DNA from: Eubacteriales bacterium | Lineage (GTDB): Bacteria; Bacillota; Clostridia; Oscillospirales; CAG-272 | Reading direction: 5' to 3' | NCBI GenBank assembly: GCA_045596505.1 | Contig: JAZOCO010000045.1 | Location: 6,443 to 70,442, forward strand | DNA length: 64,000 nt | Shown here: positions 19,716-62,455 of the stretch, in pieces | How the letters are laid out: each line of letters starts with the position of its first letter | How positions within the stretch are numbered: position 1 is the stretch's first letter | Made by a program: the position numbers and the translations under genes | The notes under the pieces: generated by a model | What the model saw: the letters and a program-made list of their open reading frames with translations, nothing else | Database searches by the model: none | Told to the model about the DNA's origin: nothing

Positions 19716-19754
19716 TTTCTGTCCCCGTGAATGATATAAAAGGAGATTTATGTG

Positions 19755-19892
19755 ATGCAGCAAAATCAGAACAACCAAAACAACCAGAATAGCCAAAACA
19801 ATCAGAATCAAAACAGAAATCAAAACAACCAAAACCAGAATAGGAACAATCAGAATAACCAAAACCAGAACAAGAACAACCAAAGCCGATAA
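19755..19892 (+). CDS. 45-aa Asn/Gln-rich microprotein (candidate small spore protein)
   Basis: Own translation: MQQNQNNQNNQNSQNNQNQNRNQNNQNQNRNNQNNQNQNKNNQSR*. RBS AAAGGAG (19739-19745) lies 9 nt before the ATG. It has a dedicated terminator and a sigma-G-like promoter. It is below the 60-aa ORF-track cutoff. Confidence 0.6.
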   Translation: MQQNQNNQNNQNSQNNQNQNRNQNNQNQNRNNQNNQNQNKNNQSR

Positions 19893-41208: not shown

Positions 41209-42054
41209 TCAAGAGTTACCGCAGCATCTGCCCCTCGCACCGCCTTTTCCGTTTGAAGTCGGCGCTATGGTGTTGGGGCAAAACGCAGATGTTGGGAAAG
41301 GCATTTGACGGAAGGTGCAGCAGGGATCCTCATCAGAGGTAGCGACGCACTCCTTATCGGGCAGACAAAATTCGGTTGCTTCCACTAAGAGTTGCCCCTC
41401 GCGCACAAGACGGATCACAGAGAAAAGCCCCAAGGAAATGACAAGGTGGCGGTTGTCTCCGTTTTCCTCATCGCACAGCACGCCGTTAAGCCCCTCTGTG
41501 ACAGTACCGGGCACGTCACAAGCACAGCAGCAGCAATGACAGTTGCATTCCTCAACCACACGCGCGCCAAGCACGACAAGCGGCACGACCTCAATGACAG
41601 CCTCAGGATCGTTATTTGCACAGCAAACCGGCTCAGGTATAGCACAGAAGTTATCACATGCCTTACTGCGGAAAATGCTGACGTTGCTCTCACCGCCAAA
41701 GAGAACTACACGTTTTTCAAGCACCGCAATTCCCTCAAGGCATTGGGATTGCCCCATCGGCACACAAACCTCAAACTCACATTTCACGTAAAATCTGGCA
41801 AGCACCGTATAAAAGCCACAATTAAACTGTACAGGATCGACCGAAATATTGGTTGCAACGATCTTAGCACATTTCACACGAACATTGCTTGTGCGTGCAA
41901 CAAGCTCTTCTCCGGCAGCAGTCAGGAACACGCGTACATCCTCGAAGCAATCTCTGTCACGGCAGGCGTCGAGAATGCGGGACGCTTCGATACCGAAGCG
42001 CTCTCCGTTGTTCAATGCGCCGTTTCCCGTACAGGAAAATCTGTTATCTCCCAT
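41209..42054 (-). CDS. cysteine-rich protein of unknown function (281 aa)
   Basis: About 31 Cys by my count, including 'ECNCHCCCCACDVPG' and C-terminal 'GRCCGNS'. RBS AGGAGG (42067-42072). Terminator-like hairpins lie on both sides. The opposite-strand ORF 41392..42159 has no RBS and a junk-like composition. Confidence 0.7.
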   Translation of the reverse strand: MGDNRFSCTGNGALNNGERFGIEASRILDACRDRDCFEDVRVFLTAAGEELVARTSNVRVKCAKIVATNISVDPVQFNCGFYTVLARFYVKCEFEVCVPMGQSQCLEGIAVLEKRVVLFGGESNVSIFRSKACDNFCAIPEPVCCANNDPEAVIEVVPLVVLGARVVEECNCHCCCCACDVPGTVTEGLNGVLCDEENGDNRHLVISLGLFSVIRLVREGQLLVEATEFCLPDKECVATSDEDPCCTFRQMPFPTSAFCPNTIAPTSNGKGGARGRCCGNS

Positions 42055-42140
42055 AGGAATTTGGTTCCTCCTAAAAAGAATTCAAGAGCAAATAAGGCTC
42101 TTCTCTACTATCCTATGAGAACACTGTCGAATTTGATAAT

Positions 42141-44408
42141 TTATTGTAAAATGAAGTGATATTGTAAGGGTTCTACCACGTAATAAAGATCCTGACGAAC
42201 CTCTAAACATAAAAGCACCTCATCATTTGGGATCAACACCGTGCTACCCGGTGTGGCACATGGGATCACCGCTTCGTGTGGCAAGGGTCCGTGTGCGCCC
42301 AAAATAAAAAGTTCGGCTCGCGGCGTGGGCACTAAAACCTCTCTCGCACGGCGGTATTCCGATAAGGCGGCGCTTTCATAATAAAGCGCGCTATCCCCAA
42401 AATTAACTGTGAGAGAAAAAGCAGGCTCGACCGACCTCTTCATGAAAATAGGATCACTGATAAGGACGGTTCCGCTTTCAAAAATAACAAGCTCTTCATC
42501 ATACCCATAAACGGTTACGGGAATATCTACCGACCATGCGATCTCGACAAGTGCGAGAAATATTTCACTTTCCTTGTCTGTCTTTGGCGATGGTAGCCAA
42601 AGTGCGCGTACCGTTTCGGATTTTGAAAAACGAGAAAATGACGTTTTGTGCGCATTATGGTAATGTGTAAGCATCAAAACATCGAGTTCTGTAGCGCCCT
42701 CGCTTTTAAGCGCGTGCCAACCGTTTAGAAGCGCGGACGTACTGCCGCTTGAAAGGTCGCACAGCATTGCATTTCCATCAGCAAAAAATCCGATTGCTTC
42801 GTTTCTTCCTTCTTGGCAATACAGCCCCGTGATTTCCTGCGAGCTTTGATTATACACAGTGAGTGTGATCATAAAGGTCAAAAGGAAAAGTGGGATCGGC
42901 AAAAGCGCCACAAGAATGTATTTTTTTAATTCTATCAACAGAAGTGCTATTGCAAGAGCAAGGAATGGCAACAGAATAAAGGGCACAAATTCATACGCAA
43001 GTGACACCATCGTGTCAGGGCGCGATAACAGCTCAGTGAGCATCAGCATAAGCGCGCCCACCAACTTGCCAAAAATGCCAAACAAGGGTGCGGGAAACAA
43101 GAACAGCACAAATATGCCTATAACCAAAAAGACAGTTGACAATGGGATCAGTAAAAGATTGGAAAGCGGTGTGATCACAGAGATCTCCCCAAACGTTAGC
43201 CACTGCACGGGAAGTACAGCAAAGCCTGCGGTAAAGGTTATGAGTAAGGAACTAAGAAGCCAACGCACTCCTTTACGCAAAAGATCGATCTTATGCCGTT
43301 TGCTTGGCAAAAGCTGAAAAAGCAGGCTATTTACCTTGGTATATGCCAAAATGCCGAAGGTGGCAAGAACAGTCATTTGGTAAGAGGCAGTGAAAACGGC
43401 ATAAGGCTGCCATAACAGGATCAATGCGGCTGCAAGAAAAAGCGAGGTAAGCGAATCTCGGCTTTCTTTTAAAAACAGTGATATGTAAAGCAAAAATATC
43501 ATCAAGACTGCCCGCACCGTGGACAATGCACAGCCCGTGATCATCAAATACCCAAAAAGAAACAAAAGAATCAGCGACATTCTAAGCTGCTTAGGTGCGC
43601 TAACGCAAAACAAGATCTTATCAAGGAGCAATGTAAGGATCCCAACGTGTAATCCGCTGAGCGCCAAAAGGTGCGAAACGCCCGCCCGCTTGAAATTCCT
43701 TACCGTGGCATCCGAAAGACCTTCTCTTTTTCCGAGAAGCATCGCATTTAAAAGCACGCCGGGTTCTCCCTCAACGTAAGTTGAAACGGTGGCAATCAGA
43801 TTGAAGCGAAGCGCCTCAAACCAATCAAGCACAGGATGTGGCGCACGTCCCAAAAATTCAAGTTCTTGTACCTCGTCGCTTACTAAGATCGCACGGCAAC
43901 CCTTGCCCATCAACTGAAATTTTTGATTTTCATAATAATTCTCGTAGGTGAGAGGCTGAACGGTGAACGTGCCTTTTGCCATGTCACCTGCACGAATCGG
44001 TGCCGTTTGTGCAAGCTTAAAAACAACTCTTGCGTTGCAGAGCTCGCCGTTAATATCCGTAACACGTGCCACAAGCTCAGAGGAGTAAACGGTAGTATAC
44101 GTGACCTCCTCCACCTCAAAGACAACCGTAACCGTGCTACCGATCTTTGAAAGCTGATCGCTTGTTGACTTTAGATAAAGCGTTGTACGAAGAAGACCCA
44201 AAAATATACCCAAGCAAAGCAGAACGAGATATAGTCTTGCATAAGACGCACCCCGAAAAATGGAGAATATAATAAGATAAAGAAAAATGAGAGCGAGCAA
44301 TGAAAGCAGCAAGCCTATGGTTTTAAGCTCAAGAAAAAATCCCAAAGCCGTGGAAAATAAAAAAGCACAAAGTTCTGCTGCCAAAGGACGCTTTTTAAAT
44401 ATACCCAT
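42141..44408 (-). CDS. comEC: DNA internalization competence protein ComEC/Rec2
   Basis: Multi-TM competence domain ('RNFKRAGVSHLLALSGLHVG') plus a C-terminal metallo-beta-lactamase domain ('LMLTHYHNAH'). Start at ATG 44408 after AGGAGG. Confidence 0.85.
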   Translation of the reverse strand: MGIFKKRPLAAELCAFLFSTALGFFLELKTIGLLLSLLALIFLYLIIFSIFRGASYARLYLVLLCLGIFLGLLRTTLYLKSTSDQLSKIGSTVTVVFEVEEVTYTTVYSSELVARVTDINGELCNARVVFKLAQTAPIRAGDMAKGTFTVQPLTYENYYENQKFQLMGKGCRAILVSDEVQELEFLGRAPHPVLDWFEALRFNLIATVSTYVEGEPGVLLNAMLLGKREGLSDATVRNFKRAGVSHLLALSGLHVGILTLLLDKILFCVSAPKQLRMSLILLFLFGYLMITGCALSTVRAVLMIFLLYISLFLKESRDSLTSLFLAAALILLWQPYAVFTASYQMTVLATFGILAYTKVNSLLFQLLPSKRHKIDLLRKGVRWLLSSLLITFTAGFAVLPVQWLTFGEISVITPLSNLLLIPLSTVFLVIGIFVLFLFPAPLFGIFGKLVGALMLMLTELLSRPDTMVSLAYEFVPFILLPFLALAIALLLIELKKYILVALLPIPLFLLTFMITLTVYNQSSQEITGLYCQEGRNEAIGFFADGNAMLCDLSSGSTSALLNGWHALKSEGATELDVLMLTHYHNAHKTSFSRFSKSETVRALWLPSPKTDKESEIFLALVEIAWSVDIPVTVYGYDEELVIFESGTVLISDPIFMKRSVEPAFSLTVNFGDSALYYESAALSEYRRAREVLVPTPRAELFILGAHGPLPHEAVIPCATPGSTVLIPNDEVLLCLEVRQDLYYVVEPLQYHFILQ

Positions 44409-44573
44409 ACTCTCCTCCTTTCTCATTATTGCATAATCATTATACTTTTTTGTATCATATATGTCAATCATTTTGTCTTTCCTTGTCACATTTCTTCTAA
44501 TTTAGCCAAAAACGTCTTGACAAAACACTCTGTGAAATATATAATTAGTATAACATATTATGGAGGGCTGTTT

Positions 44574-44795
44574 ATGTTTGATAAAGTAAAGCAAATTCTG
44601 ATGGATGAGCTGCAAATTGACGAAAATGAGATCACGCTCGATGCAGAGCTTTCAGGCGATCTTGGAATCAACTCGATCGAGCTTGCAGACCTTGTGATGA
44701 TGTGTGAGGAGCAATTCGGCGTTGAAATTTCCGAGGACGCTGCCAACGAATTTTTGACCGTCGGTGACGTTGTGAAATACCTCGAATCTCTTTGA
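44574..44795 (+). CDS. acyl carrier protein-like protein (73 aa)
   Basis: 'ELSGDLGINSIELADLVM' matches the ACP phosphopantetheine-Ser helix. Start at ATG 44574 after GGAGGG. It is an orphan with no fab genes nearby. Confidence 0.7.
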   Translation: MFDKVKQILMDELQIDENEITLDAELSGDLGINSIELADLVMMCEEQFGVEISEDAANEFLTVGDVVKYLESL

Positions 44796-44809
44796 TAACA
44801 CTAAAAAAT

Positions 44810-44849
44810 GCCGAGTTGGGTGCTTAATAGCATCACTCGGCGTTTTTTT
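44810..44849 (+). terminator. rho-independent terminator
   Basis: GCCGAGT (44810-44816) / ACTCGGC (44835-44841) with an inner TGCT/AGCA tier, followed by GTTTTTTT. Confidence 0.8.
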
Positions 44850-44898
44850 ATTCATAAACGGCATACCGAGGATCTATATTTGAGTGAGGTGAACTGTT

Positions 44899-45630
44899 AT
44901 GATGAAAAAATTACACTTGCTTCCCTTCACGCTCTCTTTCCTCTCTCTTTGCCTGATATTTTCTTCTCTTTCCCTTCATTATTTAGAGCCACGGCGTTCG
45001 GTTTTGAGCAACACCGATATTGCCAACACCCCCGTGATCATCATTGACGCGGGACACGGTGGCATTGACGGTGGGGCAGTTGGCGCTGACGGGACGGCGG
45101 AAAAGGATTTAAATCTTAAGATTTCAAAGAAGCTTGCCGCACTGCTCCGTTTGATGGGGTATGCGGTTGTAGAAACACGCACGGAGGATATTTCACTTGC
45201 AAGTGAAGATGCAAAAAAAGGACATATAAAACAATCTGACTTAGAAAACAGGCTAAGGATCGCCGCGCAATACGATAAAAAGGTTTTTGTAAGCATTCAT
45301 ATGAACACCTATTCGGGCGTTTCTTGCGAGGGGTTGCAGGTCTGGTATTCCGAGGGAGATGCCGCTTCGGCAGAAATCGCAAAGGCTGTCCAACAAGGGG
45401 TAAAAAACACTTTACAACCGCAAAATAACAGAAAAATAAAGCTTGCCACCTCCTCCATATATCTTTTGCGGCAAGCAACTTATCCCGCGATCCTCATTGA
45501 ATGCGGTTTTATTTCCAATTTAGACGAGTGTAAACGCCTTGGTGACGACCTTTATCAAAAGCAACTGGCGCTTGCTATTGCCGCTTCCATTTCTAAAAAT
45601 GTCAAAAACAATGCTTGCCAGAACGGGTAA
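44899..45630 (+). CDS. cwlD: N-acetylmuramoyl-L-alanine amidase, CwlD-like (germination-specific)
   Basis: Amidase_3 motifs 'IIIDAGHGGIDGGA', 'ISIHMN' and 'ECGFISN'. Single N-terminal TM helix and a size typical of CwlD. Confidence 0.75.
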   Translation: MMKKLHLLPFTLSFLSLCLIFSSLSLHYLEPRRSVLSNTDIANTPVIIIDAGHGGIDGGAVGADGTAEKDLNLKISKKLAALLRLMGYAVVETRTEDISLASEDAKKGHIKQSDLENRLRIAAQYDKKVFVSIHMNTYSGVSCEGLQVWYSEGDAASAEIAKAVQQGVKNTLQPQNNRKIKLATSSIYLLRQATYPAILIECGFISNLDECKRLGDDLYQKQLALAIAASISKNVKNNACQNG

Positions 45631-45643
45631 TGCGTGGTATACT
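45615..45643 (+). promoter_or_regulatory. sigma-A promoter driving the intergenic RNA candidate
   Basis: TTGCCA (45615-45620), a 17-nt spacer, then TATACT (45638-45643). It overlaps the last codons of cwlD. Confidence 0.55.
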
Positions 45644-45649
45644 GTTTAT

Positions 45650-45980
45650 ATGTAGTGAGTATTAGCCGCAAGGGAATCGAACACATAAGGTTTTCGCCTG
45701 CAAATATTTGTCTATCCATCAGCAAAAAGCCTTGTAATATCCGCATATTGCTTCGGCTTTTCGCCTCGTCTTGCCTAAATATTTGCAGGATGAAAACTGG
45801 TTTCCACCCTGCGGTGTGAAAATTTTTGATGGATTTTTGTGGGGCGGGGCGAAGGAAAGTGCAGACTTTTCAAGTCACGCCACGCATAAATTGGCGGAAA
45901 TTTACCGCCGCAGGGCTTATTTGTTTGATTCCCTTGCGGCTAAGAAAAGTCGCGAAAGCCCTGTACAAAACGATTTTTTT
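45650..45980 (+). ncRNA. unclassified highly structured RNA candidate (~300 nt)
   Basis: 28-position closing helix 45662-45689 / 45916-45943 with 17 contiguous Watson-Crick pairs. Internal 93-nt hairpin with a perfect 13-bp base (45697-45709 / 45777-45789). Additional small hairpins. A U-run at 45974-45980. Own promoter upstream and a separate promoter for rlmB downstream. No ORF in this region has an RBS. Confidence 0.45.
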
Positions 45981-45990
45981 ATGTTATAAT
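45962..45990 (+). promoter_or_regulatory. extended -10 sigma-A promoter for rlmB
   Basis: TGTACA (45962-45967), a 17-nt spacer, then TATAAT (45985-45990) preceded by TGT (TGnTATAAT). Confidence 0.55.
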
Positions 45991-46041
45991 AAAACTCATA
46001 ATATAATTCTACGCGCCCGAGGGCGCACGCAAGGAGCAGCT

Positions 46042-46896
46042 ATGTATCAAAGAGATCAAGTGGAGGGTAAGCCGCGACGTCAGGGTCAGCACTATCATAA
46101 AAAGGGATATGACTCCCGCGCAAAAGCGAGAGGGGAGCGTGCGCCCTTCGATGAGGAGCGTATCGGAAGCGGTGCTGTCATTGGCAGAAACGCCGTGCGA
46201 GAGCTTTTGCGGTCGGGCAGAGCCGTTGATAAAATATTGGTGCAGGCAGGAGAGCACGAGGGGGCACTTACGCCGATTGTTGGCGAGGCGATCGCGCGCG
46301 GCATTCCCGTGGTCAATACCGAGCGCCGCAAGCTGGATAGCCTTGCAGGGAACGTGCCGCATCAGGGCATTGTTGCCTTGGCGGCAGAAAAGGAATACGT
46401 CACAGTGGAGGAGATCCTTGCCATTGCCGCCGCCCGCGGCGAGAAGCCACTGATCGTGATAGCCGATGGCATTGCCGACCCCTATAATCTCGGTGCGGTT
46501 ATCCGCTGTGCCGAGGGGTGCGGTGCACATGGGCTGATCATTCCCAAAAGGCACGCCGCGGGGCTGACGCCCGTGGTCACCAAGGCATCTGCCGGTGCCA
46601 TCGAGCATCTTGCCATTGCCAAGGTCACCAACATTGCATCGACTGTTGAGCTTTTGAAGGAGTCGGGCGTATGGGTCTTTGCTGCCGAGGCGGGCGGCAC
46701 CAATTTCCGCGAGGTCGATATGAACGTGCCCGCCGCTATCGTGCTGGGAAGTGAGGGGGCAGGAGTGTCGGAGCTTGTGCGGAAGAGAAGCGATTTTATC
46801 ATTTCAATTCCCATGCACGGACAGGTGAATTCTTTTAACGTATCCACTGCCGCAGCCGTTTTGCTGTGCGAGGCGGCTTATCAGCAGCGCAAATAA
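46042..46896 (+). CDS. rlmB: 23S rRNA (guanosine-2'-O)-methyltransferase RlmB with basic N-terminal extension
   Basis: 'GRNAVRELL', 'DGIADPYNLGAVIRCAEG', 'IVLGSEGAGVS' and 'VNSFNVSTAAAVLL'. Start at ATG 46042 after AAGGAG. The track ORF start at 45826 lies in the RNA region. Confidence 0.85.
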   Translation: MYQRDQVEGKPRRQGQHYHKKGYDSRAKARGERAPFDEERIGSGAVIGRNAVRELLRSGRAVDKILVQAGEHEGALTPIVGEAIARGIPVVNTERRKLDSLAGNVPHQGIVALAAEKEYVTVEEILAIAAARGEKPLIVIADGIADPYNLGAVIRCAEGCGAHGLIIPKRHAAGLTPVVTKASAGAIEHLAIAKVTNIASTVELLKESGVWVFAAEAGGTNFREVDMNVPAAIVLGSEGAGVSELVRKRSDFIISIPMHGQVNSFNVSTAAAVLLCEAAYQQRK

Positions 46897-46939
46897 GTAA
46901 TGCGCAAGGCTTTTGATGTTAGTAAAGGAGGGGAATGCG

Positions 46940-49915
46940 ATGCAGGAGCAGGATAAGCGTGATTTAAATGAAACCGAAATGGTCATGCAACAGCTTCGCG
47001 CTATGCTGGAAAAGGAGCAAAATGCTACCGTAGGCGATGAGACCACCAAAGAAAAAAGCGATCGCATTCCGAATCAGGAGTCAGGAGAAGCAGGAGGGGC
47101 TGCAGAGGGCGCTGTTGCCGTAATGGTGCGCCAATCAGACCCTTCAGCGGAAACCGTTCCGCTTAAAAAGGATTTGGAAGCGGGGAGTAAGGCGGCGGAA
47201 GAAAAAACACAAGACGAGCCTTTACAAACGCCCGTTTTGCGGCAGCGCACCGTACCCAAAAAAGCAAGTCCGCGCAAGAAGCGCTACCGTTTGCCAAAGT
47301 TAACGGATGATGAGCCGATCGCTGAGCCGTTGCTTGACGATGCCCTTGCCGAAAAAAAGAAGCGCGCCGAGGCGTTGGCGCGCGAGGATGAAAAGGATCT
47401 TTATTGGAGTGGTATGCGTGCAACGGAAGAGAGAGGGGCACGCCACGCGTCAAAAGTAGCAGATGATCCCGCCAAGGAAACGCGTGCAGCCAAGCCCCCA
47501 AATGAGGAGGATCCCCCCATCGAGCAAACTGCCGCATCCCGCAGAAAGGGGATCAGGTCGTCTGCGGCGAAGCGCAAGGAGGAGCTTGCAAATCTTACCG
47601 TAGAGGGGCTTCTGAGCGATATCTTCGGTGTTGGAGCACGTAATGAGCGTGCTTGGCGGGAGACACAGAAGCCTACCCCGGTGGATGAACCCTCAGAGAA
47701 CCTCTCAATGTCCGAGGCGGGGACTCCGCCAAGAGAGGAGAATGCGACCGTCAAGGCTCCCGAATCGCCCGCCGAGGAGGGGGAAGCCACCCTTGAGCTT
47801 GAAGGTACAAGGATCTTTTTACCAAAAGAAGGAACGCCGATTCGCGAGAGTGCACATAAAAAGAGTGAGGCACTGAAGGAGGCGGGCGAGGTGGCGGAAG
47901 GTGTACCGCTTTTTTCCGCATTCTCCGTCAAGCGTCAAAGGGAGGGCGCGTTGCCGAAGCCCTCTATTGCACGGCGTTCTGCTGAGCAAATGGCATTTAA
48001 GCGTGCGCTCGAGGGGTCTGATGAGGAGTTCGAGCTTTTGGTCGATCTTGATTACGAGGATGAGCTGGGAGAAGCGATCGGCTTTGAAAAGATCCTTGAT
48101 TATCACGAGCGTCGCATCAACGGCAAGACCGATGCAGGCGAGCTTCGCCCGCAGACCGTGCGCGAAAGGACGCGAGAGAAGAAAAAAAGTGAGTATACCA
48201 CGCATGCGCTGGATATTGGGATCAGTAAATTCTATGCTAAACAGCGTCGCCGTCACTTGGGCAATCTTGCCGTGACCGCCGTGTTGCTCTTACTGCTGCT
48301 GATATTTGAGCAGTCAAGTGCGGTGGTGTCGCTTTTTGGCGCGGCGCGTGAGGGAATGAAATACACCTCGCTTTATATTATCGTTGGCTTGGTGCTTCTT
48401 TTGTGCGGTGTGATCCTGCTTCGTCGCCAGCTTCTTAACGGCTTGCTGCAGCTTGCGCGCCTTGCTCCGTCGGATTATTCCTTTGCGGGCGTTGTTGTGC
48501 TGGTCACGATCGTGTATCATGTGTGCTTGCTGTTTGTCCCCGCAAGCAGTTCAATGTCGCTATGCCTTTCTCCTGCAATGGGCAACCTTTGCTTGCTCGC
48601 TGCAGCGGGGATCTTTAACTGGCACCGTGAATTCAGTGCCTTTCGCGTGATCTCCTCAAAGCAGCAAAAATACGCGCTGATGTCCCGCATATCCGTGGGA
48701 AACAGGGAGGGGAATGCAAAGCTTCGCTTGTTTGAGCAGGAGCGAGAGGAGCAACTGCTCTTTGCGCGTCCTGTCGGCTTCGTGCGCAATTATTTTGTCA
48801 ACACGGAAAAAAAGGCTGATCGCCAAAGCGCCTTTGGCGCGGAGCTGCTCATCATCGCCGCTATTTGCTGCGCTTTTGCCCTGTATTCGCTCGCGATGGG
48901 CGGCAGTATCGACAGCGCTTGGCACACCGCGTTTCTTACTTTTTTGTTTGCTGTTCCTACAGTTTCGGTGCTGGGTACGGCTTTGCCAATGTTTTGCGGC
49001 ACGTGCCTTCGTCTTGGACGTCGCGGTGCTATTGTAGGAGAGGGAGCTGTACATACCTCGGGCGGTAGAACGGCGCTTGTTCTGCCCGATGCCGATTGCT
49101 TTAAGAGGATGCCTCACGAGCAGTTTGAGCTGGTAAAGGGGTGTGATGCCCGGCGTGCAACCATTTACATACGCGCATTGCTTGAAAAGATCGAAAGTCC
49201 TCTGGTCGACACCGTGCACGTTCCAAAGGAATCCATGCTTTCGCTTGATGCCATTACGCTGACGGAGATAGATGAGGATGGTGTTGCTGCGGTCATTTCA
49301 GGGGAACGTAAAACGCCCATCTTAATGGGCAGCGTTGCATATCTGCAAAAATACGGCATTCGTGTCAGCCCCAAAAAGGACGGTAGGTACGAGGAGCTTT
49401 GCCGCCATATGATCTGTGTAGCGATCAATAATCGCCTCACGGCGTTGTTCATTGCACGGTATCGATTGCACGATGAGATGTCCCGCCTTGTACAGCTGCT
49501 TGAGAAGGAGGAGCTCACGCTCAAGATTCGTTCAAAGGATCCCGGTGTGCGCGGGGAAATGCTTGCCACCCTTTTTGCCGATGCAGGTATCACTCCCGAG
49601 GTAATAAAGCCCCTGGCGGCGGAACGGGATATTACTGCGGATAGGGTGGATGCAACCATTGTGGCGCTTGGCTCGGCACGTGAGGTGCTGAGGACCTATG
49701 CTACCTGTCGCAGGATCCGCCGTGCTGTGAAGCTTGGCAAGCTTTGGCAGCTTGCGTCCGTTTTGTGCGGTGCGGTGCTGTCGGGTATGCTGGTGTTTTT
49801 TGGTAAGATCACGGCTGTTCCAACCTTTGTGCTTGCACTTAATACCTTTTTCTGGTGCGGTGTACATGCCGCAAGCTCTTATTTTATGCTACGCGATAAA
49901 GAGGATAGTGAATAA
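46940..49915 (+). CDS. P1B-ATPase-like 8-TM protein with degenerate catalytic motifs and ~450-aa disordered N-terminal region
   Basis: Start at ATG 46940 after AAAGGAGGGG. The N-terminal half is E/K/A/P-rich low complexity. The C-terminal half aligns by eye to CopA-type pumps, but CPC reads 'VPT', DKTGT reads 'DADCF', TGDN reads 'SKDP', and no GDGxNDxP or TGES is present. Confidence 0.7.
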   Translation: MQEQDKRDLNETEMVMQQLRAMLEKEQNATVGDETTKEKSDRIPNQESGEAGGAAEGAVAVMVRQSDPSAETVPLKKDLEAGSKAAEEKTQDEPLQTPVLRQRTVPKKASPRKKRYRLPKLTDDEPIAEPLLDDALAEKKKRAEALAREDEKDLYWSGMRATEERGARHASKVADDPAKETRAAKPPNEEDPPIEQTAASRRKGIRSSAAKRKEELANLTVEGLLSDIFGVGARNERAWRETQKPTPVDEPSENLSMSEAGTPPREENATVKAPESPAEEGEATLELEGTRIFLPKEGTPIRESAHKKSEALKEAGEVAEGVPLFSAFSVKRQREGALPKPSIARRSAEQMAFKRALEGSDEEFELLVDLDYEDELGEAIGFEKILDYHERRINGKTDAGELRPQTVRERTREKKKSEYTTHALDIGISKFYAKQRRRHLGNLAVTAVLLLLLLIFEQSSAVVSLFGAAREGMKYTSLYIIVGLVLLLCGVILLRRQLLNGLLQLARLAPSDYSFAGVVVLVTIVYHVCLLFVPASSSMSLCLSPAMGNLCLLAAAGIFNWHREFSAFRVISSKQQKYALMSRISVGNREGNAKLRLFEQEREEQLLFARPVGFVRNYFVNTEKKADRQSAFGAELLIIAAICCAFALYSLAMGGSIDSAWHTAFLTFLFAVPTVSVLGTALPMFCGTCLRLGRRGAIVGEGAVHTSGGRTALVLPDADCFKRMPHEQFELVKGCDARRATIYIRALLEKIESPLVDTVHVPKESMLSLDAITLTEIDEDGVAAVISGERKTPILMGSVAYLQKYGIRVSPKKDGRYEELCRHMICVAINNRLTALFIARYRLHDEMSRLVQLLEKEELTLKIRSKDPGVRGEMLATLFADAGITPEVIKPLAAERDITADRVDATIVALGSAREVLRTYATCRRIRRAVKLGKLWQLASVLCGAVLSGMLVFFGKITAVPTFVLALNTFFWCGVHAASSYFMLRDKEDSE

Positions 49916-49951
49916 CGTTCTCCTTGATCTGCGTGCTCTGAGGAGAAATAT

Positions 49952-51817
49952 ATGAACGAAAAGATCAGTTCTATTTTAAAGACCGTTGAAAAGCCCGGCA
50001 GATATTCGGGCGGAGAATACGGCGCAGTGATAAAAAATAAAAAAGAGGTCAAAGCACGCTTTGCCTTTTGCTTCCCCGATACGTACGAGATCGGTATGTC
50101 TAATCTCGGCATGCGCCTTTTGTACGGATGCCTCAATCAGGAGCCCGATATCTGGTGCGAACGCGTGTTTGCACCGTGGGTGGATATGCAGGAGAGGATG
50201 CGGGAGCACGGCGTGCCGCTCTGGGCGCACGAATCGGGCGACCCTGTGAAGGATTTTGATATCCTAGGCATCACACTGCAATACGAAATGTGCTATACCA
50301 CGGCACTGCGTGTGCTTCAGCTCTCCGGGATCCCACTGCTTGCCGCAGAGCGCGGCGACGATGCTCCCATTGTGATCGGCGGCGGTCCTTGCGCTTATAA
50401 CCCCGAGCCGATCGCGGACTTCTTCGATTGCTTCTCGATCGGAGAGGGTGAGGATAATTTGGTGGAGTTTACCAAGCTGTATATCCGCATGCGAGAGGAG
50501 GGCAGGTATACTAAGTCCTCGTTCTTGCGCGAGGCGGCGGCTACCATAAAGGGCATCTACGTGCCGTCTCTTTATGACGTCACCTATCACGAGGATGGCA
50601 CCATCGCTGCCATCACACCAAAGTTTGAGGACGTGCCTCGGCAAGTGGAAAAATGCATCATTGCCGATCTTGACAGCGCGTATTTTCCCGAAAAGCTGGT
50701 AATGCCGTATATCGAGGCGGTACACGACCGCATCATGCTCGAGGTCTATCGCGGCTGTATCCGCGGCTGTCGCTTCTGTCAGGCGGGCATGATCTATCGT
50801 CCCGTGCGTGAGCGATCGCATGAGGTTCTGAATAAACAGGCACGCTGCCTTTACGATAACACGGGATACGAGGAGATCTCTCTGACGTCGCTCTCCATTA
50901 GTGATTATACCGAGCTTGAGCCGTTGACGCGCGAGCTGCTTGAATGGACGGACCCCAATATGGTCAGTCTTTCTCTGCCTTCACTTCGCGTGGATAGCTT
51001 CAGCCGCGAGCTGATGGATCGCATCGCCTCGGTCCGCACCTCGTCCCTTACGTTCGCTCCGGAGGCGGGCACGCAGCGCCTGCGCGACGTGATCAATAAA
51101 AACGTGTGCGAGTCAGATCTTATGCGCGCCGTCAATATTGCGTTTTCGGGCGGAAAGACCAACGTAAAGCTCTATTTTATGAACGGACTTCCAACGGAAA
51201 CTGCCGAGGATATTGCGGGCATCGCCACACTTGCAAAAAGCGTGGTGCACGAATATTATCAAAATAAGGATCGTCCCAAGGGCAGATCCCCGCAGGTCAC
51301 AATCAGTGTTTCCTGCTTTGTGCCAAAGCCCTTCACACCCTTCCAGTGGGAGGCGCAGGATACCATGGAGATGCTAAAGGAAAAGCAGGCGTATCTTGGC
51401 GAGCAGATAACCGACCGCAAGGTGCGCTATACGCACCACGATGCGCGTGTCAGCCGCATTGAGGCAGTCCTCGCGCGCGGCAACCGTAAGCTTTCAGCGG
51501 CACTGCTGCTTGCCGCAAAGGAGGGCTTTTGCTTTGATGCGTGGGATGAGTTCTTTGATTACGACAAGTGGCTGTCCGTCTTTGAGCGTACAGGGATCGA
51601 TCCCGCATTCTTCGCCAATCGACAAATGGGGCTTGACGAGGTGCTGCCGTGGGACATCATTGACTGTGGCGTCAGCAAGGAATTTTTAAAGCGTGAGCGC
51701 ACCCGCGCCTATGAGGCTGCCACCACGCCCAGCTGCCGCGAAAAATGCTCGGGGTGCGGTGCCAATCGCTTGGGAGGCAAGCGTACCTGTTGCCCCGGGG
51801 GAGGTAACGAGAAGTGA
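49952..51817 (+). CDS. B12-binding-domain radical SAM protein (TIGR03960-like)
   Basis: 621 aa. Radical SAM cluster motif 'CIRGCRFCQAG'. The N-terminal B12-binding-like domain matches my recollection of the family. Confidence 0.8.
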   Translation: MNEKISSILKTVEKPGRYSGGEYGAVIKNKKEVKARFAFCFPDTYEIGMSNLGMRLLYGCLNQEPDIWCERVFAPWVDMQERMREHGVPLWAHESGDPVKDFDILGITLQYEMCYTTALRVLQLSGIPLLAAERGDDAPIVIGGGPCAYNPEPIADFFDCFSIGEGEDNLVEFTKLYIRMREEGRYTKSSFLREAAATIKGIYVPSLYDVTYHEDGTIAAITPKFEDVPRQVEKCIIADLDSAYFPEKLVMPYIEAVHDRIMLEVYRGCIRGCRFCQAGMIYRPVRERSHEVLNKQARCLYDNTGYEEISLTSLSISDYTELEPLTRELLEWTDPNMVSLSLPSLRVDSFSRELMDRIASVRTSSLTFAPEAGTQRLRDVINKNVCESDLMRAVNIAFSGGKTNVKLYFMNGLPTETAEDIAGIATLAKSVVHEYYQNKDRPKGRSPQVTISVSCFVPKPFTPFQWEAQDTMEMLKEKQAYLGEQITDRKVRYTHHDARVSRIEAVLARGNRKLSAALLLAAKEGFCFDAWDEFFDYDKWLSVFERTGIDPAFFANRQMGLDEVLPWDIIDCGVSKEFLKRERTRAYEAATTPSCREKCSGCGANRLGGKRTCCPGGGNEK

Positions 51818-61562: not shown

Positions 61563-62395
61563 TGAAATTACCCTTTAAAGTAGATCTTTCGGATAAGGTA
61601 GCGGTCGTCACGGGTGCGGGCGGCATCCTGATGAGTGAGTTTTCACGCGCACTTGCCGCTTGCGGCGCACGCGTGGCACTGCTTGATATCAATGCCGAGG
61701 CAGTAAACAAGATCGCTGCCGAGATCGGCGAGAACGCACTTGCCGTTCCCACCAATTGCCTTGATAAGGCAAGCATCGTTGCGGCACGTGAGGCAGTGGC
61801 TGCCAAGTTTGGCAAGGTCAATTTTCTCATCAACGGTGCGGGCGGCAACAATCCGCGCGCGACCACCGATAACGAATATATGACCCCCGATCTTTCGTCA
61901 GATTGCAAGGATTTCTTCGACCTTGAGGAAAGCGGCATTAAGTTCGTGTTTGATCTGAATATCACCACCGCGTTCCTCGTCACGCAGGTGTTTGCTGCCG
62001 ATATGGTAGAGGGTGGCGGCAATATCATCAACATTGCTTCTATGAATGCCTTCAGACCCCTCACGAAGATCCCTGCATATAGTGCAGCTAAGGCGGGCAT
62101 CAGCAATTTTACCGAATGGCTTGCCGTGCACTTTGCACCCGTGGGCATTCGTTGCAATGCCATTGCTCCCGGCTTCTTTGTGACCCATCAAAACAGAGGG
62201 CTACTCTTTGATGCAGAGGGCAACCCCACCGCGCGCACGGGCAAGATCCTCGGTGGCACGCCCCAGAAGCGCTTTGGTGAAGTGGACGACCTCATCGGTA
62301 CGCTTCTTTGGCTCTCCTCTGACGAGGCAAGCGGCTTTGTTACGGGTACCGTTATTCCTGTTGACGGCGGCTTCAACGCTTATTCCGGCGTATAA
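61562..62395 (+). CDS. SDR-family oxidoreductase (UxuB/YjmF-like mannonate/fructuronate oxidoreductase type)
   Basis: 'VTGAGGILMS', 'NGAGGN' and 'YSAAKAG'. Located directly after uxuA. Confidence 0.75.
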   Translation: MKLPFKVDLSDKVAVVTGAGGILMSEFSRALAACGARVALLDINAEAVNKIAAEIGENALAVPTNCLDKASIVAAREAVAAKFGKVNFLINGAGGNNPRATTDNEYMTPDLSSDCKDFFDLEESGIKFVFDLNITTAFLVTQVFAADMVEGGGNIINIASMNAFRPLTKIPAYSAAKAGISNFTEWLAVHFAPVGIRCNAIAPGFFVTHQNRGLLFDAEGNPTARTGKILGGTPQKRFGEVDDLIGTLLWLSSDEASGFVTGTVIPVDGGFNAYSGV

Positions 62396-62402
62396 TGATT
62401 GT

Positions 62403-62436
62403 AAAAAATGCACGGCGATATCGCCGTGCATTTTTT
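62403..62436. terminator. bidirectional rho-independent terminator (sugar operon / rsmA)
   Basis: AAAAAATGCACGGCGA / TCGCCGTGCATTTTTT, a perfect palindromic stem flanked by A- and T-runs. Confidence 0.9.
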
Positions 62437-62455
62437 ACATTTATTCCTTTGGAAA

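Follow-up and report, generated by a model that had tools for sequence, protein, structure and literature searches.

The 64-kb window analysed here (the whole stretch of Eubacteriales DNA, 64,000 nt) carries between the genes cwlD and rlmB an element of 282 nt (45662-45943) that has inverted repeats as its ends and is predicted to fold into a very stable RNA. The cwlD gene, whose product has an Amidase_3 domain, ends at window position 45630. The rlmB gene (SpoU_sub_bind and SpoU_methylase domains) starts with the ATG at 46042, with an AAGGAG ribosome-binding site (RBS) ahead of it, and the gap between the two genes is 411 nt. These bounds agree with those of a first-pass annotation, made from the sequence alone, in which the spacer had been put forward as a structured RNA or a mobile repeat. 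The element is somewhat AT-rich (43.8% G+C compared with 48.7% for the window). Pfam scans of the 55 open reading frames (ORFs) of the window revealed core housekeeping genes (for example, dnaE, secA, pcrA, clpXP, tig, spoIIID and comEC) and, among those scanned, no transposase, integrase, recombinase or reverse transcriptase.

A branched fold closed by long inverted repeats

The element folds as RNA at -136 kcal/mol (z = -11.4), and none of 200 dinucleotide shuffles folded as well. The structure is a three-way branched one, in which the inverted repeats pair as a closing stem (P1) around two long hairpins (A and B). The features of the spacer, in order, are as follows.

45615..45643, + strand: sigma-A-type promoter TTGCCA-17-TATACT with a TG extension, found by promoter scan and overlapping the end of cwlD
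45662..45689, + strand: left inverted repeat, 5' strand of closing stem P1, pairing with 45916-45943
45690..45797, + strand: hairpin A, 108 nt, with a base of 7 + 14 bp, internal loops and upper tiers of 2 + 7 + 7 bp
45798..45806, + strand: 3-bp mini-hairpin (in the minimum-free-energy fold) or junction linker between hairpins A and B
45807..45915, + strand: hairpin B, 109 nt, long, imperfect and G-U-rich, specific to the + strand
45916..45943, + strand: right inverted repeat, 3' strand of P1; its last base is the synteny breakpoint
45944..46041, + strand: native rlmB promoter and 5' untranslated region (5'UTR), outside the element, conserved in L095-L100

The closing helix had been recognised in the first-pass annotation and is confirmed, with 27 of its 28 positions paired: 22 contiguous pairs are followed by a single C/U mismatch (45684/45921) and five further pairs, and there is one G-U pair. 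The 17 outermost bases of the arms match perfectly, and the inverted repeat can be extended to 44 nt at 80%. Hairpin A (-38.2 kcal/mol, z = -7.6) was also correctly described, with a base of 14 bp (45697-45710/45776-45789), a second tier at 45722-31/45755-64 and a tip of 7 bp. In contrast, two small hairpins that had been placed at 45801-45822 and 45892-45910 are weak local alternatives (z about -2) that are subsumed in hairpin B, which had been missed. Hairpin B is the more stable of the long hairpins at -53.5 kcal/mol (z = -7.0), whereas its reverse complement reaches only -30.2 kcal/mol.

The element is called non-coding. It had been stated that the gap holds no ORF with an RBS; two ORFs, of 61 and 72 aa, do overlap the spacer, but its non-coding status stands. 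Neither ORF has a Pfam match, and the 12 substitutions in the element relative to a sister species (our own count on the alignment) are without third-codon-position bias, so a coding reading was ruled out.

No known RNA family was recognised, in agreement with the first-pass annotation. The families covered by Rfam include riboswitch, T-box, SRP, RNase P, tmRNA, OLE, ROOL, GOLLD, raiA, HEARO and YrlA. A cmscan of the whole window against Rfam 15 gave no hits at the gathering score, and a scan of 45500-46100 at E up to 10 gave four chance hits of 16 to 18 bits, compared with thresholds of 35 to 229. ARAGORN detected neither tRNA nor tmRNA in the window. 6S RNA (RF00013) resembles the element in the long closing stem formed by its 5' and 3' ends and in being, as the element may be, a promoter-driven small RNA. 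However, its irregular hairpin with a central bubble contrasts with two long hairpins here, and the element is about 100 nt longer and has no defined 3' end. The earlier rejection of 6S RNA therefore stands, as no covariance-model match was obtained at E up to 10.

A junction of two ancestral neighbourhoods

Comparison with relatives reveals that the arrangement around the element is derived. In the CwlD relatives L102 and L103 (68% and 71% identity) the gene order is comEC, acp, cwlD, a 40-nt promoter-bearing spacer and the repair gene radA. The RlmB relatives (69 to 94% identical) are metagenome-assembled genomes of uncultured Clostridia, Oscillospiraceae and Eubacteriales, many from animal guts; in all of them eno, on the - strand, is separated from rlmB by a spacer of some 156 nt, and the genes that follow rlmB are the same. 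Neither group has the element, and both radA and eno are absent from the 64-kb window, in which the order is cwlD, element, rlmB. What had been treated as a cwlD-rlmB spacer is thus not a conserved spacer but the derived junction of the ancestral cwlD-radA and eno-rlmB loci.

The position of the junction is exact. The blastn alignment between the window and its closest relative (L095, RlmB 94% identical) begins at 45943 and extends 4 kb rightward. Since homology to the eno-rlmB spacer runs from 45943/45944, the segment 45944-46041 is native rlmB upstream sequence, and the synteny breakpoint (45943/45944) coincides with the final base of the right arm. Compared with the more distant relatives the element is an insertion, and it is present at the orthologous site in two contigs of a sister species (L106 and L107, described below). 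The downstream side of the junction also carries, directly after rlmB, an ORF of 1000 aa (46913-49915) without a Pfam domain; it is kept there in all close relatives (35 to 62% identity) and is followed by a gene for a radical-SAM protein.

The promoter upstream of the element had been taken as its own. The site is present and its -10 box is conserved in relatives, but as the promoter of a different gene: the same promoter (TTGCCAG/TTGCGAG ... TGGTATACT) lies 20 to 25 nt upstream of the radA RBS in L102 and L103. It is also found in the sister-species contigs L101, L106 and L107, and the -10 box TGGTATACT is kept in non-coding sequence across five lineages. Because relatives have the same promoter ahead of radA, the site at 45615-45643 is read, from sequence comparison, as the conserved, ancestral radA promoter. 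Transcription from it would start near 45650.

The other landmark of the proposed transcription unit, a U-run at 45974-45980 regarded as its end, fared similarly. This T-run is taken in by the rlmB promoter (TGTACA-17-TATAAT, 45962-45990), in a region that is conserved in relatives without the element; the first-pass annotation was right that rlmB has its own promoter. A promoter/terminator scan found no terminator-like site on the + strand at the U-run, and 45944-45990 has no significant structure (z = -0.4). With an ancestral radA promoter, no terminator and a proposed 3' end inside the rlmB promoter, an independent transcription unit is unsupported. In every reading considered here, the promoter and the U-run, two of the three landmarks originally described, belong to ancestral promoters of the neighbouring genes.

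The rlmB 5'UTR contains in addition a small GC-rich hairpin (GCGCC-CGAG-GGCGC, 46011-46030) just upstream of the RBS. In relatives the leader hairpin is built from other sequences (GCGCC/GGCGC with a different loop in L099 and GCGCG/CGCGC in L100), which suggests that a stem in the rlmB leader is conserved.

There is a small chance that the junction is a product of assembly, with two real loci, cwlD-element-radA and eno-(element)-rlmB, joined through a repeated copy of the element; the organism would then have no cwlD-rlmB spacer of this form. The join lies exactly at the end of a repeat, and sister-species contigs end inside or beside the element in three samples. The window itself is part of a 77,349-bp contig assembled from a metagenome. 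An enolase that is 93% identical to that of the sister species lies on a separate contig of 30,316 bp, likely from the same assembly. Such a join would, however, need another copy of the element ahead of rlmB, where the 94%-identical relative has none. Both blocks are similarly diverged from the sister species (about 85% and 82% nucleotide identity). The G+C content (42000-50000) does step at the junction, being about 46% to the left of the element and about 55% to its right, but the same step separates the sister's own contigs and is therefore a property of the gene blocks. The similar divergence on both sides, together with this shared step, also makes an inter-species chimera unlikely. The element is real regardless of the junction, as it is also present in L106.

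Conservation in a sister species and preference for one strand

The sister species is represented by L106 (sample ERZ27316664), which is about 85% identical to the window across the flanking 5.7 kb; the same sample also gives the element-free eno-rlmB contig L095. In L106, and in the short contig L107 (SRR14556609) that agrees with it, the element follows directly after cwlD with an identical left junction, and there is a C-to-T change at 45682 in the left arm. L106 ends inside the element, covering the equivalent of 45662-45815 only, and over this part 139 of 154 positions (90.3%) are identical to the window. For comparison, the third codon positions of cwlD are 65% identical and the acp-cwlD spacer is 83.5% identical, while most 150-nt windows of the flanks lie at 75 to 85%.

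The sequence differences allow some assessment of the fold. Of the 37 pairs of hairpin A, 32 are unchanged in L106, one has a one-sided change and is still paired, one has a double change and three are broken, when scored in the register of the window. The double change (45730/45756, C-G in the window and U-A in L106) is the sole visible compensatory change. Hairpin A of L106 re-registers and keeps -35.5 kcal/mol, whereas 11 substitutions of the same types drawn at random gave -26.8 ± 5.7 kcal/mol and reached -35.5 in 6.6% of cases (about P = 0.07). The modelled retention of energy is thus a suggestive signal that falls below significance. L106 also has a 2-nt deletion in 45798-45806, because of which this segment is probably just a linker.

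Folding strongly favours the + strand. RNA fold energies were -141.9 kcal/mol for the + strand and -113.9 kcal/mol for the - strand, a difference due almost wholly to hairpin B, and with DNA parameters they were -74.4 and -65.6 kcal/mol. G-U pairs make up 12 of the 111 pairs on the + strand (eight of the 12 lie in hairpin B), while A-C accounts for one of the seven 1x1 mismatches, which favours the + strand as the transcribed one. Symmetric decay of a palindrome is expected to give G-U and A-C about equally, and on this expectation the one-sided binomial probability of 12 against 1 is about 0.002 (calculated by hand), a figure possibly inflated by folding optimisation and by strand-biased C-to-T mutation.

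These results bear on whether the element is an RNA under selection. It could be a lineage-restricted structured non-coding RNA of about 280 nt that captured the radA promoter, is released or stabilised by its closing stem and has been selected in both species, acting in trans (with a partner left unspecified) or as a stable RNA. A conserved promoter, a fold with a z-score of -11.4, the + strand preference with its G-U excess and an identity to the sister species well above that of cwlD third positions all point in this direction. So do the compensatory pair, the energy kept by hairpin A, the persistence of an intact fold though radA is no longer downstream and the presence of a single copy wherever this can be checked. 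The reading is nevertheless rather unlikely. The element has no terminator or defined 3' end and is absent from all more distant relatives, so the RNA would have to be very young, and very long, near-perfect helices are seen more typically in inverted-repeat DNA than in evolved RNAs. A DNA breakpoint exactly at the repeat end also counts against an RNA gene, covariation comes from two sequences in which one compensatory pair stands against three broken ones, and the G-U excess could partly reflect the mutational bias mentioned above.

Alternatively, the element may have arisen upstream of radA in the common ancestor of the two species as a cis-acting 5' leader, involved in mRNA stability or signal sensing, and been moved before rlmB by a later rearrangement. 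This is improbable, as the radA of relatives works with a 25-nt 5'UTR and the element has stayed intact after being parted from radA. Its position between the radA promoter and, ancestrally, radA would suit a leader, as would conservation above the neutral proxy and the lack of a terminator, by which it would be co-transcribed with the downstream gene. However, no riboswitch, T-box or leader model matches, and there is no expression platform, either as a terminator/anti-terminator or as a helix that sequesters the RBS. About 90 nt, with rlmB's own promoter among them, lie between the element and the rlmB RBS, and the sister contigs stop inside the element, before any downstream gene.

A third sister-species contig hints at polymorphism at the site. 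L101 matches L106 at 99.15% identity across 5.8 kb and departs from it immediately after GGGAAT (equivalent to 45677). The divergence is abrupt, 16 nt into the left arm (L101 5780-5805 compared with L106 from 6780 onward), and L101 continues with AATCCGAACTCGGTTTTGAGAGGCAA and ends after 26 nt. This tail may come from an element-free strain or a divergent allele, in which the GGTTTT-5 nt-GCAA spacing is kept, or it may be an artefact of the contig tip. An invertible segment (inverton) was also considered. In that case what follows the left repeat in the alternative allele should match, as its reverse complement, what precedes the right repeat, and an invertase should lie nearby. The tail (AATCCGAACTCGG...) differs from the expected CAAACAAATAAGCCC... 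and the window has no recombinase, and the inverton was rejected.

Terminal repeats, copy number and the origin of the element

The miniature inverted-repeat transposable elements known as MITEs are AT-rich and intergenic, and their transcripts form very stable stem-loops (PMC10969869, PMC2649163). They may be present in as few as one copy per genome, their direct repeats decay over time and they are hotspots for homologous recombination; mRNAs that contain Correia elements are cut by RNase III at the inverted repeats (PMC10969869, PMC2649163). The MITEs used for comparison were Correia/CREE from Neisseria, ERIC from enterobacteria, RUP/BOX/SPRITE from pneumococcus and QMITE2 from Coxiella, for which a similarly large stem-loop value is given in a figure (printed as -113.09; PMC10969869).

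The element has terminal inverted repeats and is a small (282 bp), non-coding, somewhat AT-rich, intergenic sequence that is present or absent at orthologous sites. It shares with the MITEs a length of 100 to 400 bp, terminal inverted repeats of 23 to 29 bp and a promoter-adjacent intergenic position (PMC10969869, PMC2649163, PMC3049150), as well as a stable stem-loop in the putative transcript with a duplex of a size suited to RNase III. Presence or absence at orthologous sites and an association with recombination are also common to both (PMC10969869, PMC2649163, PMC3049150). The first-pass annotation had offered a MITE as an alternative, and this gains ground since the element is an insertion relative to distant relatives and its right repeat ends exactly at the breakpoint. 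The leading interpretation, and a tentative one, is accordingly that a MITE-like palindromic insertion sits at a rearrangement junction, where it would be co-transcribed from the radA promoter. The element is new in sequence and outside any described family, but by nature it most likely belongs to a known kind. Its architecture, with two internal hairpins of 108 nt in 282 bp, is more elaborate than that of Correia or ERIC; it has no sequence similarity to the families compared and differs from them in being found as one copy, at one site in two species, where it is conserved above neutral expectation.

Several results weigh against a MITE-like origin, in the first place the search for further copies. 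The 17-nt arm occurs in the window only at its two places in the element, as had been claimed, and no second copy of the element was found in the 64-kb window by an arm search allowing three mismatches, a repeat finder, blastn-short or nhmmer, nor in the loci retrieved from relatives and elsewhere, the window and these loci being what the search covered. Phage and plasmid records gave no match in blastn with 11-base words. Scans for the exact 17-mer in metagenome and viral contigs returned 51 + 8 loci, each with a single match, taken as chance, and none with both arms, from a metagenome collection that does not include even the known locus; viral contigs scanned twice more, with internal words, yielded nothing beyond chance hits. 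No parent insertion sequence (IS) was found, as no locus in these scans had two arm matches and the window has no transposase. The flanking sequences, GAGTA to the left and GAAAA to the right, show no sign of a target-site duplication; because they derive from different ancestral loci, however, a surviving duplication is not expected. Then there is the 90% conservation, above both the 65% and 83.5% proxies, at the same site in two species that are about 15% diverged in the flanks: together with the strong G-U bias it is explained no less well by selection on an RNA than by a selfish insertion. Finally, should the L101 tail represent a real empty site, the left arm's outer 16 nt would be native flank, which a classical cut-and-paste MITE does not explain.

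Other interpretations of the repeats were rejected. When the element was compared with its own reverse complement, nhmmer gave a match (E = 2e-19) that raised a full-length dyad or four-fold repeat of a unit, but this match is carried by the arms and the interior is weak. The left arm with 5 nt of its flank is identical over 22 nt (GAGTATTAGCCGCAAGGGAATC) to loci of one phage family (L053-L055, L059, L061, L086-L089, L093 and L094; for example, L087 6758-6779). This had suggested a phage attachment core, but the identity lies inside an ORF for a 716-aa tail protein and was judged to be chance, the prior for which is about 3 to 7% given roughly 35 independent 17-mer hits. A tRNA-like reading of the arm GTTCGATTCCC failed as the T-stem is unpaired (by eye) and ARAGORN found nothing in the window or in the arm-matching phage loci.

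Pairing of end inverted repeats around long internal hairpins, in a total of about 200 to 300 nt, is also characteristic of retron msr-msd RNA, with its a1/a2 stem and msd hairpin, and the element is alike in these respects. Strand-specific folding, which is seen with DNA parameters too, and the lack of a target-site duplication would likewise suit the remnant of a single-stranded DNA transposon or of a guide or retron-type system (an IS200/IS605-type palindrome, an omega-RNA or a retron msr-msd) that has lost its protein gene. Such an origin is very improbable. TnpA, TnpB, IscB and reverse transcriptase are all missing from the 55 ORFs of the window, and for a retron there is no reverse transcriptase gene adjacent to the element. 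Neither HEARO nor any other Rfam family matched at E up to 10, the phage, plasmid and viral collections contained no similar DNA, and both neighbours are housekeeping genes.

Two other repeats were noted elsewhere in the window. In the spacer just upstream of pcrA, an ORF of 46 aa consisting almost entirely of N and Q (MMQQNQNNQNNQNS..., 19752-19892) overlies a 30-nt tandem repeat of 4.2 copies (19764-19884). Between convergent genes for a short-chain dehydrogenase and a ksgA-like protein there is a palindrome with 26-nt arms, 92% complementary and without a spacer (62394-62445), which looks like a bidirectional terminator.

If the element is a MITE-like insertion, its arrival in the short 5'UTR that follows the radA promoter would have taken place in the lineage of this species and its sister. 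Transcription from that promoter, starting near 45650, would then yield an RNA with a closing helix of 27 bp and two hairpins of about 108 nt, and since there is no terminator after the element it should run on into rlmB. The very stable 5' structure includes a perfect duplex of 22 bp that, by analogy with Correia elements, may be long enough to serve as a substrate for RNase III. An effect on the transcript of this kind seems likelier than a dedicated function in trans. The element, or a second copy of it, would most likely have been the point of recombination that joined the cwlD-radA and eno-rlmB neighbourhoods; an inversion between the cwlD|radA and rlmB|eno spacers could produce the present arrangement with all genes kept.

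Three observations keep a functional RNA in consideration: the G-U strand bias, conservation above the neutral proxies and a fixed site in two species. They would be accommodated if, in uncultured Oscillospiraceae-related Clostridia of the gut, a palindromic insertion behind a housekeeping promoter had given rise to a new and very young class of structured RNA, about 280 nt long, that selection now maintains, a proposal that is doubtful at present. In the stalks at which RNase III processes rRNA operon stems and the R sites of phage T7, perfect duplexes of at least 22 bp formed by distant 5' and 3' segments enclose a structured RNA. The 22-bp perfect duplex of the element is similar, although the RNA that it encloses has no known function and cleavage is putative. 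In a young RNA class the 27-bp closing stem would act as such a processing stalk, and the 26-nt tail of L101 would be a second allele in which the GGTTTT-5 nt-GCAA spacing was kept and the helix bases were replaced.

For annotators, the locus indicates that a convincing picture of promoter, structured RNA and U-run can come from three different histories. If the element does function as an RNA, it would offer a rare glimpse of how a structured RNA first arises out of inserted DNA. If it is a MITE-like insertion, as tentatively favoured here, the case would be ordinary but instructive, with a small palindromic insertion behind a conserved promoter marking the place where two gene neighbourhoods were rejoined in uncultured gut Clostridia.

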